Positions 16,911 through 52,178 of a DNA stretch of 64,000 nt are shown piece after piece. The stretch's first letter is position 1. Every line of letters starts with the position of its first letter. Source of the DNA: Escherichia coli (GTDB taxonomy: Bacteria > Pseudomonadota > Gammaproteobacteria > Enterobacterales > Enterobacteriaceae); assembly GCF_003334765.1 (NCBI RefSeq), contig NZ_QOWT01000001.1, one strand, 5' to 3'. Below the pieces are notes generated by a model. That model did not search any database. It was not told the DNA's origin and saw only the letters and a program-made list of their open reading frames with translations. The translations under genes and the position numbers were made by a program.

Positions 16911-16973
16911 CTGATGACCACCACGCTTTTTATTGACCATTTTGCACGCAAACTGGAAAACCTGGCGTCGTCA

Positions 16974-16981
16974 TCTATTCT
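16974..16981 (+). promoter_or_regulatory. sigma-S type -10 element of sdsR
   Basis: CTATTCTT resembles the sigma-S extended -10 (CTATACT), about 7 nt upstream of the inferred SdsR 5' end. Confidence 0.45.
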
Positions 16982-16987
16982 TAAAGG

Positions 16988-17090
16988 GCAAGGCAACTAA
17001 GCCTGCATTAATGCCAACTTTTAGCGCACGGCTCTCTCCCAAGAGCCATTTCCCTGGACCGAATACAGGAATCGTGTTCGGTCTCTTTTT
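16988..17090 (+). ncRNA. sdsR: small RNA SdsR (RyeB)
   Basis: GCAAGGCAACUAAGCCUGCAUUAAUGCC...ACCGAAUACAGGAAUCGUGUUCGGUCUCUUUUU matches my recollection of SdsR, ending in an intrinsic terminator. Confidence 0.8.
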
Positions 17091-17224
17091 ATCTGTTAAA
17101 AGCCAGAAGCATTTCCTTCGCTGACTTTATAGTCAACCATAACACACACTCTACTGTCTGAGTCCAGCGTTTTTTAACATTCTTGTTAAGATTATGTGAT
17201 CTTTAGCGCGGGAGGAAAATATTG

Positions 17225-34934: not shown

Positions 34935-35393
34935 TTATTGAGTTGAAACGAGAAGCTTATAAATTTTTTCCAGATCGTCGATATTTCGAACGCGGATTAA
35001 CAGCCGACGCTGTTCTAATTGCATCACCAACACGCCATCTTCCGACAAGTTCATCGCTTTGATTCGGCTATATTCAATCCAGACATTGGCGAAGAAAAAA
35101 CCTTTTTGTTTAAAGATGATCTTCGGAACGCGGATCCAGAATATATAAAAACCCATCAGAGCCAGTGCGCTTAATAACCATGTCGTTATTAACGCACCAT
35201 GATTCGTGACGTTGTTATAGATAAGAATGACAATCAATCCGACGAAGATAACGCTATCGATGCGACCACGCCGGAGCAAAGGAATTGCCAGCAGGGTGGG
35301 GCCGTTACGGCGGGGCATGATGAACTGATCGTAGATCGCGAAGGCCAGGAGTGCGGCGATGAAAAGAATCAGTACCAGGTCCGTGATTGTCAT
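34935..35393 (-). CDS. yobD: DUF986 inner-membrane protein YobD
   Basis: ORF 152 aa ([31 protein letters not shown]...). Confidence 0.88.
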
Positions 35394-37174: not shown

Positions 37175-38146
37175 TTACTTATCGATTTTGCTGATCAGAT
37201 CCATCATTTTCAGTTTCGGATCGGTGGAAACCTTACGGACTTCCAGCTCAATACCGCGCGCATTCAGTTTCTTGAACGCCTCGATATCTTTTTCATCAAC
37301 CGAAACCGCGTTATTCACCTGGGTTTTACCCTGACGGAATGCCATACCACCGACGTTAACAGAGGTGATTTTCACGCCGCCTTCAACGAGACGCTCTACA
37401 TCTGTTGGGTTGGTAAATAACAGCATTACGCGTTCGCCAGCATATTTCGGGTTGTTGTAGACGCGAATCATTTTGGCAACATCAACTACGTGTGCTGTTA
37501 CGCCCGGAGGTGCAACCTGGGTGAGCAGTGTCTTACGAACGGTATCCGCAGCCACTTCATCACTAACAACAATAATACGGGAGACATTGGTTTCTTTGGT
37601 CCAGCGGGTGGCGACCTGACCGTGAATCAGACGGTCGTCGATACGCGCAAGGCCAATAACCATGTAGTCGTTTGGCCCCATTGGTTTTGCCGGAGTTGGA
37701 GCCGCTTTTGGTGCTGCGGCAGCGGGTGCTGGCGCGGCTTTTTCAACCGGTTTGGCTTTCAGTGCTTTCACGCCTTCACGGCCTGTTTCTACTGCCAGTG
37801 CCACCAGTTCATCAAAGCTTGGGTCATCATCACGGGCCATTAACGTTTCCACGAGCATTGGAATGTTAACGCCTGCAATGACTTCATAATGCTCTTTGTC
37901 GACGACAATGCGGCTGGCAGCATTGAACGGGCTGCCTCCCCATGTATCAACGAGAAACAGCACGCCTTTAGTGGTGTCGAGTTTTGCCAACTGAGCGTTG
38001 TACTTTTCAATCAGCGTTTCGGCATTTTCACCTGGAACGAAATCGATCCAGCCGACGTTTTCCTGCTCGCCTAACAGCATTTCTGCCGTTTTAAGCAACT
38101 GCTCTGCAGCCCAACCATGTGTGCCTATAACAATAGCAATGGTCAC
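37175..38146 (-). CDS. manX: mannose PTS enzyme IIAB
   Basis: ORF 323 aa (MTIAIVIGTHGWAAEQLLKTAEMLLGEQENVGWIDFVPGENAE...) with Ala/Pro-rich linker. Confidence 0.95.
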   Translation of the reverse strand: MTIAIVIGTHGWAAEQLLKTAEMLLGEQENVGWIDFVPGENAETLIEKYNAQLAKLDTTKGVLFLVDTWGGSPFNAASRIVVDKEHYEVIAGVNIPMLVETLMARDDDPSFDELVALAVETGREGVKALKAKPVEKAAPAPAAAAPKAAPTPAKPMGPNDYMVIGLARIDDRLIHGQVATRWTKETNVSRIIVVSDEVAADTVRKTLLTQVAPPGVTAHVVDVAKMIRVYNNPKYAGERVMLLFTNPTDVERLVEGGVKITSVNVGGMAFRQGKTQVNNAVSVDEKDIEAFKKLNARGIELEVRKVSTDPKLKMMDLISKIDK

Positions 38147-38608
38147 TTGCTACCTCCTTTATTATCGTTAACACCTCAACGTGCCAGATGTATTTTTGAA
38201 TCGTCGTCCACAATCGAATCGATTCAGATAAGGGCTACAACCAAAAACCCCTGCGTTTCGCGATTTATTTTAGATATCGAAAAAATTATTTTATGTGATG
38301 AAGATCCGTAATTTAACTTTCGATTAGCAGAAATTTCGAAAGGTAAAATATCCTTGTTACATTCGTTTGCAAAGGAAGGTAAATCTTTGCCAAATCAGAG
38401 GCGTCTCTGATATGTTTAACTCCCGTTTAACAACCATGGAGTATAGGGCAGTAGCCCGCAGTATGGATCGTCACCGACGTCATTTCAGCATCAGGCCTTT
38501 TAACGCCCGCCTTTCTGGCACTCTATGCCGCACCTTTCGTTTGCATTTTGTCGTTACGCCTGCATTATTTCTGGCGTCGAATAGCTATTCCTTAAGCAGG
38601 AGCTTGTC

Positions 38609-40165
38609 ATGGAATTCTTAATGGACCCCTCAATTTGGGCGGGGCTACTCACGCTTGTTGTTCTCGAAATTGTGCTGGGTATCGATAACCTGGTCTTCAT
38701 CGCCATTCTTGCTGACAAACTGCCGCCAAAACAACGCGATAAAGCGCGTTTGCTGGGGTTATCACTGGCGCTGATTATGCGTCTGGGGCTGCTGTCGCTG
38801 ATTTCATGGATGGTCACGCTGACCAAACCGCTATTTACCGTCATGGATTTCTCCTTCTCCGGACGCGACCTGATTATGTTGTTCGGGGGGATATTCTTGC
38901 TGTTCAAAGCAACAACCGAACTGCATGAACGGCTGGAAAACCGCGATCATGATTCCGGCCACGGTAAAGGCTACGCCAGTTTCTGGGTGGTCGTCACACA
39001 GATTGTCATCCTTGACGCCGTCTTCTCGTTGGATGCGGTAATTACTGCAGTAGGGATGGTTAACCATCTGCCGGTGATGATGGCGGCGGTAGTGATTGCG
39101 ATGGCGGTTATGTTGCTGGCATCCAAACCGCTGACGCGATTCGTTAACCAGCACCCCACGGTGGTGGTGCTCTGTCTGAGCTTCCTGTTAATGATTGGTC
39201 TGAGTCTGGTGGCAGAAGGTTTCGGTTTCCACATTCCGAAAGGTTACCTGTATGCCGCGATTGGCTTCTCGATCATCATCGAAGTGTTTAACCAGATTGC
39301 GCGTCGCAACTTTATTCGCCACCAGTCGACTTTGCCGCTGCGAGCGCGTACTGCCGATGCCATCCTGCGTTTGATGGGCGGGAAACGTCAGGCCAATGTT
39401 CAGCACGATGCCGATAACCCGATGCCGATGCCGATCCCGGAAGGTGCATTTGCCGAAGAAGAACGTTACATGATTAACGGCGTACTGACGCTGGCGTCGC
39501 GTTCTCTGCGCGGGATCATGACGCCGCGCGGTGAAATAAGCTGGGTTGACGCTAATCTCGGGGTCGATGAAATCCGCGAGCAACTGCTCTCTTCACCGCA
39601 CAGTCTGTTCCCGGTATGTCGCGGTGAACTGGATGAAATCATCGGTATTGTACGTGCTAAAGAACTGCTGGTGGCGCTGGAAGAGGGCGTTGATGTGGCG
39701 GCGATTGCTTCGGCGTCTCCGGCGATTATCGTCCCGGAAACCCTCGATCCGATCAACCTGTTGGGCGTGCTGCGTCGTGCTCGCGGGAGCTTTGTTATCG
39801 TGACCAACGAGTTTGGTGTGGTACAAGGTCTGGTCACGCCGCTGGATGTGCTGGAAGCCATTGCGGGTGAATTCCCGGACGCTGACGAAACGCCGGAAAT
39901 CATTACTGATGGTGACGGCTGGCTGGTAAAAGGCGGTACAGATTTGCATGCCTTGCAGCAGGCGCTTGATGTTGAGCACCTTGCCGATGACGATGATATC
40001 GCGACGGTCGCGGGCCTCGTGATCTCGGCAAATGGTCACATTCCCCGTGTGGGCGATGTGATTGATGTAGGGCCACTGCATATCACCATCATTGAAGCCA
40101 ATGATTATCGTGTTGATCTGGTTCGCATTGTTAAAGAGCAACCGGCGCACGATGAAGATGAGTAA
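38609..40165 (+). CDS. yoaE: TerC-family membrane protein with CBS pair and CorC/HlyC C-domain (UPF0053) YoaE
   Basis: ORF 518 aa ([40 protein letters not shown]...). Confidence 0.9.
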
Positions 40166-40168
40166 GCG

Positions 40169-41767
40169 TTAACGTAACGGCATAATGGGCGTGATATGTC
40201 CATTATGCCGGGCGGGCGGCGGTTGGCTGCCCGCCAGCCATTTGGGAAAATCACGTAGCGGCATCGGCTGTGCGTACAAATACCCTTGCAAAATATGCAC
40301 GCCATGACGGCGCAAATACTTCGCCTGTTCTTGCGTTTCCACGCCCTCCGCCACCAGTTCAATATTCAGTCTTTGCCCCAGCGCGATGATGATATCGGTC
40401 ACCGTCGAGTTAACCGCGTCAGAACCTATAGCTGCGGTAAATGACTTATCAATTTTCAGCACGTCAGGACGTAATGTTTCAAGCCAGGAAAACGAGCTGT
40501 TGCCGGTGCCGAAGTCATCAATCGCCAGTTTGACGTTTTTACGATGCAGCTCGCGGGCAATCCGATAATCAACATCCAGTAAGGCATCGCGTTCGGTGAT
40601 TTCGAGGATCAGTTGCTGAATCGGGTGAGCGCTAAACCAGTACTGATTGAGATCTTTTATCAGCACACCACGGCGAAAATGGCTGGGTGCGACGTTAATG
40701 CCAACATGAAACTGACTACTCATCGGGAAAACATGGCGCTGACGAATGGTTTCTGCCATCACATAGCGGGTCAGTGGCACAATTAAATGATGTTCTTCCG
40801 CGATAGGAATAAACACATCCGGTGAAATCCAGCCCTGACGCGGATTGTTCCAGCGCAGCAAAATCTCTACACCAATACATTGCTGGCTGCGCGCATTAAG
40901 CAAAGGCTGACAGAACAATTCGAACTCATGTTGCGCCAGGCCCAGATTGATTTCGCGGGAAAAGCTCATTCGGTAAGCGGTCGCCAGCCAGGCGATGTAG
41001 CCCACCAGTAAACTTAGCAGCACCGCCAGCGGTAATTGTGTTGGAAGATAGTGCCATGCCAGCGCCGTAGCCCCCGGACCATTAACGTTAATGGTAAAAG
41101 GAAAGCGTTGCGAAGAAACCTGATAGTTTTCATTGTCTTCAGGTTGCGGAAGGGAATCTACCAGCCCATTACCATAGAGCAAATGCCGTTTGTCCACCGT
41201 CAGGCTGGCGCTACTGATTTGCGGCAGTTGTGGCTCAAGCAGCATTGCCGTCAGTAAGTCGATGTTAATCATCTCCATGACCCCAGCATTGCTACTGCCC
41301 GCTGCAGGCGTCCATTGAATCAAAACCGGACTGCCTTTAATCAGGGCACGGTCGATCGTCAGGCGTAAAAGTGGTTGCGGTGCAGGAAGTTCAGCCAGAA
41401 TGTCCACGACGGGCACATTGCGATAACCAAAAATGCTGGAGCAATAAAGTGTGCCGTCTTGCACCAGGCCAATGGATCGCACAGTTTGGAGTTTTGCCGC
41501 CTGTTTACGTAATGGCAAATGGGCGACAGAGCAGGGCAGACCAATCAGCGGAAGCAAGACTTCGCTACCTGCCTGTAGGGGAAGCAGTACTTTATCTAAT
41601 TCCTCTACAGCGTGATTGGCGAATTGTACTACCCGTTGTTGATTTAAGTTACGCTGTGAAATAAATCGCACGCTCAGGGTCGAAGCGAGCGTAACGAGTG
41701 CGCAAATCGTACAAACAATCATTCGATTACGACGATAGGTTTTAATGATCCGTTGTGCTTTTTGCAT
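40169..41767 (-). CDS. pdeD: c-di-GMP phosphodiesterase PdeD (YoaD), CSS-motif sensor plus EAL domain
   Basis: ORF-track frame 40169..41797; start placed at ATG 41765-41767 (MQKAQRIIKTYRRNRMIVCTICAL...) giving 532 aa; EAL signature (EITERDAL). Confidence 0.85.
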   Translation of the reverse strand: MQKAQRIIKTYRRNRMIVCTICALVTLASTLSVRFISQRNLNQQRVVQFANHAVEELDKVLLPLQAGSEVLLPLIGLPCSVAHLPLRKQAAKLQTVRSIGLVQDGTLYCSSIFGYRNVPVVDILAELPAPQPLLRLTIDRALIKGSPVLIQWTPAAGSSNAGVMEMINIDLLTAMLLEPQLPQISSASLTVDKRHLLYGNGLVDSLPQPEDNENYQVSSQRFPFTINVNGPGATALAWHYLPTQLPLAVLLSLLVGYIAWLATAYRMSFSREINLGLAQHEFELFCQPLLNARSQQCIGVEILLRWNNPRQGWISPDVFIPIAEEHHLIVPLTRYVMAETIRQRHVFPMSSQFHVGINVAPSHFRRGVLIKDLNQYWFSAHPIQQLILEITERDALLDVDYRIARELHRKNVKLAIDDFGTGNSSFSWLETLRPDVLKIDKSFTAAIGSDAVNSTVTDIIIALGQRLNIELVAEGVETQEQAKYLRRHGVHILQGYLYAQPMPLRDFPKWLAGSQPPPARHNGHITPIMPLR

Positions 41768-50447: not shown

Positions 50448-52133
50448 TTGAAGAAGGTTTGGCTTAACCGTTATCCCGCGGACGTTCCGACGGAGATCAA
50501 CCCTGACCGTTATCAATCTCTGGTAGATATGTTTGAGCAGTCGGTCGCGCGCTACGCCGATCAACCTGCGTTTGTGAATATGGGGGAGGTAATGACCTTC
50601 CGCAAGCTGGAAGAACGCAGTCGCGCGTTTGCCGCTTATTTGCAACAAGGGTTGGGGCTGAAGAAAGGCGATCGCGTTGCGTTGATGATGCCTAATTTAT
50701 TGCAATATCCGGTGGCGCTGTTTGGCATTTTGCGTGCCGGGATGATCGTCGTAAACGTTAACCCGTTGTATACCCCGCGTGAGCTTGAGCATCAGCTTAA
50801 CGATAGCGGCGCATCGGCGATTGTTATCGTGTCTAACTTTGCTCACACACTGGAAAAAGTGGTTGATAAAACCGCCGTTCAGCACGTAATTCTGACCCGT
50901 ATGGGCGATCAGCTATCTACGGCAAAAGGCACGGTAGTCAATTTCGTTGTTAAATACATCAAGCGTTTGGTGCCGAAATACCATCTGCCAGATGCCATTT
51001 CATTTCGTAGCGCACTGCATAACGGCTACCGGATGCAGTACGTCAAACCCGAACTGGTGCCGGAAGATTTAGCTTTTCTGCAATACACCGGCGGCACCAC
51101 TGGTGTGGCGAAAGGCGCGATGCTGACTCACCGCAATATGCTGGCGAACCTGGAACAGGTTAACGCGACCTATGGTCCGCTGTTGCATCCGGGCAAAGAG
51201 CTGGTGGTGACGGCGCTGCCGCTGTATCACATTTTTGCCCTGACCATTAACTGCCTGCTGTTTATCGAACTGGGTGGGCAGAACCTGCTTATCACTAACC
51301 CGCGCGATATTCCAGGGTTGGTAAAAGAGTTAGCGAAATATCCGTTTACCGCTATCACGGGCGTTAACACCTTGTTCAATGCGTTGCTGAACAATAAAGA
51401 GTTCCAGCAGCTGGATTTCTCCAGTCTGCATCTTTCCGCAGGCGGTGGGATGCCAGTGCAGCAAGTGGTGGCAGAGCGTTGGGTGAAACTGACCGGACAG
51501 TATCTGCTGGAAGGCTATGGCCTTACCGAGTGTGCGCCGCTGGTCAGCGTTAACCCATATGATATTGATTATCATAGTGGTAGCATCGGTTTGCCGGTGC
51601 CGTCGACGGAAGCCAAACTGGTGGATGATGATGATAATGAAGTACCACCAGGTCAACCGGGTGAGCTTTGTGTCAAAGGACCGCAGGTGATGCTGGGTTA
51701 CTGGCAGCGTCCCGATGCTACCGATGAAATCATCAAAAATGGCTGGTTACACACCGGCGACATCGCGGTAATGGATGAAGAAGGATTCCTGCGCATTGTC
51801 GATCGTAAAAAAGACATGATTCTGGTTTCCGGTTTTAACGTCTATCCCAACGAGATTGAAGATGTCGTCATGCAGCATCCTGGCGTACAGGAAGTCGCGG
51901 CTGTTGGCGTACCTTCCGGCTCCAGTGGTGAAGCGGTGAAAATCTTCGTAGTGAAAAAAGATCCATCGCTTACCGAAGAGTCACTGGTGACTTTTTGCCG
52001 CCGTCAGCTCACGGGATACAAAGTACCGAAGCTGGTGGAGTTTCGTGATGAGTTACCGAAATCTAACGTCGGAAAAATTTTGCGACGAGAATTACGTGAC
52101 GAAGCGCGCGGCAAAGTGGACAATAAAGCCTGA
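50448..52133 (+). CDS. fadD: long-chain fatty-acid-CoA ligase
   Basis: ORF-track frame from 50382; annotated-length 561 aa starts at TTG 50448 ([22 protein letters not shown]...); AMP-binding signature [12 protein letters not shown]. Confidence 0.88.
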
Positions 52134-52153
52134 GCGTTAAGTCAGTCGTCAGA

Positions 52154-52178
52154 CGCCGGTTAATCCGGCGTTTTTTTT
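52154..52178 (+). terminator. intrinsic terminator downstream of fadD
   Basis: stem cgccgg/ccggcg followed by T8. Confidence 0.85.

Follow-up and report, generated by a model that had tools for sequence, protein, structure and literature searches.

The region upstream of yoaE (mgpA) in Escherichia coli: a probable promoter and the known translated leader ORF yoaL

The region between manX and yoaE in Escherichia coli is very probably the promoter and translated leader of a yoaL-yoaE (mgpA) transcription unit; the probability of this reading is put at roughly 0.85. The feature is already known: yoaL is an annotated and published leader ORF, which was rediscovered here. All coordinates refer to a 64,000-nucleotide stretch of E. 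coli DNA (the window; RefSeq contig NZ_QOWT01000001.1). manX (37175-38146, - strand) and yoaE (38609-40165, + strand) are divergent. A sequence-only reading of the window had pointed to a long intergenic leader region upstream of yoaE, and such a region is present: 462 bp separate the end of manX at 38146 from the start of yoaE at 38609.

yoaE encodes a cation transport protein with TerC, CBS-pair and CorC_HlyC domains. In Salmonella, YoaE was renamed MgpA; it protects against excess Mg2+ and is needed for survival in egg white and for virulence (PMC12421838). A 601-base query across the manX/yoaE intergenic region has a match in 5,424 of 5,426 complete E. coli genomes, and the RefSeq genes under that match are manX, yoaE and the small gene yoaL; yoaL is annotated in essentially all of the 5,424 genomes and is b4751 in K-12. 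Over positions 38330-38640 the window differs from K-12 at two of 311 bases (38358 and 38508). The second is the only difference inside yoaL; codon 16 is CGC instead of TGC (arginine for cysteine). This single nucleotide polymorphism alters residue 16 of YoaL and weakens a hairpin, H-A, that is described below.

yoaL (38463-38621, + strand; RefSeq, K-12 b4751, Pfam PF22867) consists of 52 codons and a stop codon. Its product matches PF22867 over its entire length (residues 1-52 of 52; E 9.6e-39, 131.7 bits). The gene lies just upstream of yoaE on the same strand and overlaps the yoaE start, as it does in K-12. It is like b4751 in locus, frame, start, stop and sequence, with no substantive difference besides the effects of the polymorphism at 38508. 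The leader had been described from the sequence alone as untranslated, and an 84-aa ORF within it (38367-38621) had been set aside as implausible. The ORF does exist, and both of these judgements have to be reversed: its last 52 codons, in the same frame, are yoaL, which is annotated by RefSeq as in K-12, belongs to a Pfam family and has a conserved open frame.

Evidence that yoaL is translated comes from ribosome profiling (Weaver et al., bioRxiv 10.1101/511675). In the same study, changing the yoaL start codon to a stop codon strongly lowered expression of a yoaE-lacZ fusion (Weaver et al. 2019, bioRxiv 10.1101/511675). yoaL is an experimentally validated, translated small ORF. The region upstream of yoaE does have a function in cis, as the sequence-only reading had considered, and this function runs through the ORF that had been set aside. 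The fusion carried the whole 5' UTR, and its output cannot separate transcription from translation (bioRxiv 10.1101/511675). Weaver et al. place the yoaL start "13 codons" downstream of the original annotation, which agrees with neither of the distances of the upstream ATGs, 9 and 17 codons.

Conservation of the yoaL ORF extends far beyond chance. A YoaE query retrieved 80 loci, 79 of them with enough upstream DNA to examine; all are from Enterobacteriaceae with YoaE identity of at least 85%, so that the sample has limited phylogenetic depth and leaves out about 315 more distant YoaE loci. An ORF starting ATGGAYCGTCAYCGACGY is found in 79/79 orthologues; its first residues are MDRHRR, with MDPHRR as the form of the Raoultella group. 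Its length varies between 40 and 55 codons. In 77 of the 79 orthologues it stops at +10 of the yoaE AUG, with TAATG or TGATG over yoaE codon 5. Nine ATG-to-ATG distances occur, ranging from 110 to 155 nt, and every one of them equals 2 modulo 3. No stop interrupts the yoaL frame in 77/79 orthologues, whereas the remaining two frames are open in 15 and in 0. A protein search with YoaL gave clusters from E. coli and E. albertii only, none outside Escherichia; the wider distribution of yoaL rests on the 80 genomic loci and not on the protein search.

Selection acts on the yoaL frame and on the RNA, and not on the amino-acid sequence of the interior. Codons 9-39 have a dN/dS of about 0.97, while yoaE, measured over the same pairs of genomes, gives 0.023, and the interior is unalignable between genera. 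At the same time, dS in the middle of yoaL (0.19) is lower than in yoaE (0.61), which indicates constraint at the RNA level. It is the combination of a conserved frame, neutral dN/dS and low dS that identifies frame and RNA, but not the interior peptide, as selected.

These data bear directly on whether YoaL might itself be functional as a small protein working in trans (on the YoaE transporter, for instance), with the overlap being no more than compact packing of two genes. YoaL has a Pfam family, its tagged form is detectable according to cited literature, and its first six residues are invariant. Residues 9-39, however, evolve at a dN/dS of about 1, and the protein varies from 40 to 55 aa, with an interior that resists alignment between genera; the overlapping yoaE Shine-Dalgarno sequence and start codon account for the conserved C-terminus, and the published effect of the yoaL mutation is in cis on a fusion. 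A function in trans is very improbable.

yybP-ykoY riboswitches (RF00080), which respond to Mn2+, control alx and mntP. The yoaE leader resembles these loci in being a long 5' leader before a gene with a TerC domain, and one such riboswitch, that of mntP, is found 4 kb away in the window. A riboswitch of this class, or a degenerate copy of it, could be imagined to control yoaE in the same way. The sequence-only reading had taken TerC membership as a hint in this direction and had seen a loose resemblance to GGGGAGUAG in the leader, while recognising no proper yybP-ykoY signature. The absence of a signature is confirmed: Rfam, including RF00080, gives no match over 38050-38750, either at gathering thresholds or at E<=10, and ten orthologous loci, each of a different genus, have none at E<=1. 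The mntP riboswitch served as a positive control and was found with the same library at 34637-34733 (- strand; 41.6 bits, E 3.3e-9); it was missed by the default Rfam scan since its score falls just under the RF00080 gathering threshold of 45 bits.

The TerC hint is weakened by subfamily scores. YoaE scores 75.2 bits against TIGR03716 (cut-off 138.5) and 72.3 bits against TIGR03717 (cut-off 134.8), so that its TerC domain falls short of the thresholds for YkoY and YjbE, the subfamilies linked to riboswitches. As for the resemblance, the string GGAGTATAGGGCAGTAGCC is present at 38438-38456, but the similarity seen in it (GGAGUAUAGGGCAGUAGCC) is not that of a degenerate aptamer; it consists of the yoaL Shine-Dalgarno sequence GGAG and a hairpin, HP1. 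In contrast to RF00080 leaders, the yoaE leader matches no model, has no four-way junction and is translated, with 146 of its approximately 186 nt coding for yoaL. Its predicted fold as a whole has no excess stability either (minimum free energy -54.3, compared with -55.7±4.8 for shuffles; z +0.28). Control of yoaE by a yybP-ykoY element has a probability close to nil. As far as the tools used can tell, the leader belongs to no described riboswitch family.

Transcription of the unit is predicted to start from a sigma-70 promoter at 38387-38416 (+ strand). A consensus scan gives a -35 element TTGCCA (38387-38392), an 18-nt spacer and an extended -10 element TGaTATGTT (38408-38416); near yoaE, the scan shows no sigma-70-like promoter on the + strand other than TTGCCA-18-TATGTT. 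Both the TTGCC block and the TGnTATGTT block are preserved from genus to genus. Transcription would start at about 38423, giving a predicted leader of about 186 nt. A promoter had been expected some 250 nt upstream of yoaE; a candidate was found, and the predicted leader is somewhat shorter than that estimate.

Two regulator sites are associated with this promoter. Firstly, a CpxR box of the form GCAAA-N5-GTAAA lies directly upstream of the -35 element (38369-38383, + strand), as the direct repeat GCAAA-GGAAG-GTAAA. The box is kept in 78 orthologues as TTGCAAA..GGTAAATCTTTGCC. In Salmonella, CpxR-P activates yoaE and has a footprint, GCAAAGAGATGT, at about -235 to -262 of the gene (PMC6952189); the CpxR box of the window corresponds to this footprint. 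Expression of yoaE falls in ΔcpxR.

Secondly, a PhoP box (TGTTTAactccCGTTTA; 38413-38429, + strand) was found by pattern matching at a place that overlaps the -10 element and the predicted transcription start. The box predicted for yoaE of Shigella has the identical sequence, and both half-sites are conserved across genera. In Shigella, a yoaE promoter fragment is shifted by PhoP-P, which also protects 25 nt whose sequence is reported to fit the predicted box aTGTTTAactccCGTTTAa (PMC5775216). yoaE is up 7.1-fold by array and 3.2-fold by qRT-PCR in a Shigella ΔphoPQ strain (PMC5775216); this rise means that PhoP represses yoaE. The position of the box over the -10/+1 region fits the published repression. 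An alternative, PhoP-activated promoter, with the PhoP box at the -35 position and TATAGG as the -10 element, was considered and rejected because the published regulation is repression and because a conserved Shine-Dalgarno sequence would then fall outside the mRNA.

In Salmonella, 10 mM Mg2+ induces a translational mgpA'-'lacZ fusion at both neutral and alkaline pH (PMC12421838). The authors of that study consider the mechanism of mgpA regulation to be unclear and YoaL to be perhaps involved (PMC12421838). Derepression from PhoP at high Mg2+ together with activation by Cpx at alkaline pH may plausibly explain the published pattern. This link of PhoP and CpxR to the Mg2+ and pH response is absent from the 2025 MgpA paper (PMC12421838).

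The translation start of yoaL has an unusual layout. Its Shine-Dalgarno sequence, GGAG (38438-38441, + strand; AGGAG in most genera), lies 21 nt upstream of the AUG. The GGAG block is invariant in 71 distinct sequences, at a distance of 20-21 nt from the AUG, and the sequence holds no purine-rich element nearer to the yoaL AUG. Hairpin HP1, GGGC-AGUA-GCCC (38446-38457, + strand), is located between the two. All 71 distinct sequences keep the HP1 stem fully (100%) paired, with U·G seen four times, G·U once and a compensatory change to U-A once, while the loop differs between them in both sequence and length (3-4 nt). The spacing Shine-Dalgarno/4 nt/HP1/5 nt/AUG is found in 73 of 74 sequences, with a mean pair probability of 0.92 for HP1.

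In phage T4 genes 38 and 25, "split" ribosome-binding sites are known in which a hairpin joins the Shine-Dalgarno sequence and the AUG. yoaL likewise has a distance of 20-21 nt, a small stable hairpin in between and fixed flanks of 4 nt and 5 nt; it differs from the T4 genes in being a chromosomal enterobacterial leader ORF, and the role of its hairpin is proposed from conservation. Given the distance of 20-21 nt and the lack of any purine-rich stretch closer to the AUG, HP1 probably forms a split ribosome-binding site that shortens the effective distance to about 9 nt. This model depends on the predicted transcription start lying upstream of 38441.

The beginning of the yoaL ORF is also constrained. 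The codons for MDRHRR are invariant, the rare CGA codon included. A possible weak hairpin, HP2 (CGUC-ACC-GACG; 38469-38479, + strand), lies inside the invariant codons 3-6, which encode R-H-R-R and contain the CGA. Its stem positions are invariant, and synonymous changes in codons 2-6 occur solely at third positions outside the stem; its predicted energy is just -1.6 kcal/mol, and it is broken in three distinct Raoultella-type sequences. Pairing of the invariant 5' block of yoaL with the rest of the leader over a long range was considered and rejected, as the block is less complementary to it than shuffles are (mean z +0.92).

Further downstream, three small hairpins are predicted inside yoaL. 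H-A (38492-38509, + strand) has a CAGGC...GCCUG stem in K-12; in the window, the C at 38508 results in an A·C mismatch. In a sliding profile over all orthologues the z-score minimum, with a mean of -1.85, is found here, at yoaL +18 to +53. H-B (38517-38529, + strand) is GGCA-CUCUA-UGCC, and it is closed by GC in 27 sequences, by AU in 21, by UA in three and by CG in two; shorter Klebsiella-type leaders are without H-B. The stem sequences of H-A and H-B differ between genera at fixed positions. H3 (38551-38580, + strand), with the core ACGCC/GGCGU, lies 30-58 nt upstream of the yoaE AUG. Per-sequence folds put a hairpin at this one place with differing stems, and the mean z is -1.54, compared with about 0 in the flanks; in a sequence-only alignment the core positions pair at 85-90% and show exchanges of CG for UA.

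Covariation supports H-A and H-B, while H3 is supported mainly by folding z-scores; overall, this evidence is supportive rather than decisive. In a sequence-only alignment, 74% of the alignment cells of H-A and H-B are paired, compared with at most 45% in slid controls, and 72 cells are double-changed, compared with 29±7 in shuffles (0 of 500 shuffles reach 72); these tests were made on related sequences, in alignments judged by eye. A comparative alignment of the leader across the family had been proposed in the sequence-only reading. It gave the H-A and H-B covariation counts, but when the middle and the 3' segments were aligned with MAFFT, RNAalifold predicted no consensus pairs in them; support for the hairpins came from counting the structures of per-sequence folds, with controls. 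An alternative "2:3" pairing, of the 5' arm of H-B with the segment just 3' of H-A, is paired at 67%, compared with at most 42% in slid controls; many of its pairs are G·U, and it is missing in some clades.

At the 3' end of yoaL, the two genes are interlocked. The yoaE Shine-Dalgarno sequence AGGAG (38598-38602, + strand) lies 6 nt before the AUG and within yoaL codons. The yoaL stop forms a UAAUG overlap with the second in-frame AUG of yoaE, at Met5 (38619-38623, + strand); an overlap at this place is found in 77/79 orthologues. Translational coupling of an upstream ORF through overlapping stop and start codons is known from uof-fur and from trpB-trpA (UGAUG). yoaL is like these in being short, in overlapping the main start, in having a stop/start overlap (UAAUG) and in that its translation is needed. 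It is unlike them in that the annotated yoaE AUG lies 10 nt upstream of the yoaL stop, and the overlapping AUG is the second one.

A further difference is that classical couplings mask the downstream initiation region by structure, whereas that of yoaE is not detectably structured. In the orthologues, 30-nt windows from -34 to +31 of the yoaE AUG have no excess structure (mean z 0.0 to +0.85), and the window from -33 to +17 has a mean z of -0.02. An AUUCC-GGAAU pairing that would mask the region is seen in some per-sequence folds; it was rejected, as the z-scores across orthologues are at or above zero. With an unsequestered initiation region and a strong Shine-Dalgarno sequence of its own, yoaE does not support a classical "unmasking" coupling.

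These features are best explained by the following sequence of events. The sigma-70 promoter at 38387-38416 would start the transcript, with the CpxR box mediating activation and the PhoP box mediating repression at low Mg2+. The 5' UTR of about 40 nt would supply a Shine-Dalgarno sequence 21 nt from the yoaL AUG, and HP1 probably brings the two together. Ribosomes would then cross yoaL with its three small conserved hairpins, followed by the yoaE Shine-Dalgarno sequence and AUG, and stop at the UAAUG over yoaE codon 5. On this reading it is the act of translating yoaL, and not the peptide, that yoaE expression needs. The most likely route would be termination-reinitiation at the overlapping start, keeping Rho off a leader that is C-rich and in part unstructured, or both.

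The second of these routes could be the main one. yoaL translation would then serve mainly against polarity: without ribosomes, Rho would load on the leader and terminate transcription before or early in yoaE. The interior of yoaL has more C than G in 79/79 orthologues (median C/G 1.56; 62% pyrimidine), although this C excess is modest, and the evidence is compositional. Between -88 and -41 relative to the yoaE AUG, the RNA has less structure than shuffled sequences (a mean dG of about -0.9 kcal/mol, with z-scores of +0.3 to +0.4). As the yoaE initiation region is open, initiation at yoaE ought to be possible even when yoaL is not translated, and the yoaE-lacZ fusion of Weaver et al. does not tell transcriptional from translational effects. 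On the other side, the available part of the supplements of an E. coli 3'-end mapping study does not mention yoaE or yoaL, and an anti-Rho role has no need of the strictly conserved stop/start overlap (77/79). As the principal mechanism this is possible, but on the doubtful side. A leader of this kind would, by an equally tentative analogy, resemble those of mgtL-mgtA, corL-corA or tnaC, with ON as its default state.

The Mg2+ transporter genes mgtA and corA are reportedly controlled by translated leader ORFs (mgtL and corL), alternative RNA structures and Rho. yoaL shares with them a translated leader ORF ahead of a transporter gene for Mg2+ homeostasis, and its leader shares conserved hairpins, a C-rich stretch and involvement of the PhoP/PhoQ regulon. 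There are several differences. mgtL has 17 codons and ends well upstream of mgtA, while yoaL extends into yoaE across the start of that gene. PhoP activates mgtA, which is ON when Mg2+ is low, and represses yoaE, which is ON when Mg2+ is high. yoaL also has no Pro-rich or acidic sensing motif.

Simple coupling leaves the invariance of MDRHRR and of its CGA codon unexplained; neither reinitiation nor Rho accounts for it, which leaves room for a sensing role. The leader might be a new ribosome-dependent cation sensor, in which cytoplasmic Mg2+ or a different cation acts on yoaL translation, either at initiation by way of the HP1-dependent Shine-Dalgarno sequence or during elongation by way of MDRHRR with its CGA codon and the hairpins. 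A sensor of this type, which we regard as rather unlikely, would set yoaE output in addition to control at the promoter. The invariant codons, the rare CGA among them, would fit it, as would the strictly conserved spacing of Shine-Dalgarno sequence, hairpin and AUG and the presence of conserved hairpins within a neutrally evolving ORF. In addition, high Mg2+ induces mgpA-lacZ, and the Salmonella authors propose a role for YoaL (PMC12421838). However, a PhoP box over the -10/+1 region and derepression in ΔphoPQ already explain the Mg2+ induction simply, and HP1 is a plain 4-bp GC hairpin without an evident ion-binding feature. It is a speculative and somewhat improbable proposal that yoaL translation is sensitive to cytoplasmic Mg2+ or to the state of the ribosome and passes this on to yoaE via reinitiation or Rho. 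If it were true, the yoaL leader would be the high-Mg2+-ON counterpart of the mgtL-mgtA leader.

As yoaL is already annotated and published, the remaining interest of the region is the mechanism of yoaL-yoaE coupling or of sensing. The conserved elements provide testable handles on the regulation of MgpA, which its authors call unclear (PMC12421838): the PhoP box, the CpxR box, the putative hairpin-split ribosome-binding site, the MDRHRR start, the hairpins inside yoaL and the fixed UAAUG overlap.

A strain difference in the yoaL leader affects both the peptide and a predicted RNA structure. Base 38508 is C in the window and T in K-12; this substitution lies in yoaL (38463-38621, +), the 52-codon leader ORF of yoaE, and replaces Cys with Arg at YoaL residue 16. 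The same change converts an A-U pair of the K-12 form of H-A, a hairpin within yoaL (38492-38509), to an A·C mismatch in the window strain. Base 38358 is a second position at which the window and K-12 differ.

The start of yoaL differs in one clade. In the Raoultella group (loci L052, L054, L056, L069 and L072), yoaL begins MDPHRR rather than MDRHRR due to a change of codon 3 from CGT to CCT, and the adjoining His codon is CAT. The codon 3 change is the sole non-synonymous change seen in codons 1-6, and it disrupts the stem of HP2, a putative weak hairpin over codons 3-6 (38469-38479).

The known yybP-ykoY Mn2+ riboswitch of mntP (34637-34733, -) was recovered solely with a permissive Rfam scan of the window (41.6 bits, E 3.3e-9). 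Its absence from the default whole-window scan is explained by a score slightly under the 45-bit Rfam gathering threshold for yybP-ykoY. Upstream of it is a palindromic stretch of about 80 nt (34858-34939), each strand of which is matched, far under threshold, by one miRNA-hairpin model in the permissive scan. A pattern match within this stretch, with one mismatch, is the PhoP-box-like repeat TGTTTAGTGTATTTTTA (34896-34912, -); the stretch may be an mntP operator region.

Rfam gathering matches elsewhere in the window include the SraC/RyeA and SdsR/RyeB antisense pair (16950-17094), sroD (52092-52177) and a cspA-thermoregulator-type match (32583-33043), which is probably the cspC leader.

At its 3' end, yoaE (+) converges with pdeD (-), with ORF ends three bases apart (40165-40169); the pdeD-yoaE pair is one of the RNA-seq-predicted excludons of E. 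coli (PMC12288877). In one strain, E. coli GZ04-0086 (NZ_CP042336.1), IS1A is inserted within the manX-yoaE query stretch (matching window 38100-38700). This insertion could separate yoaL-yoaE or manX from a common regulatory region.
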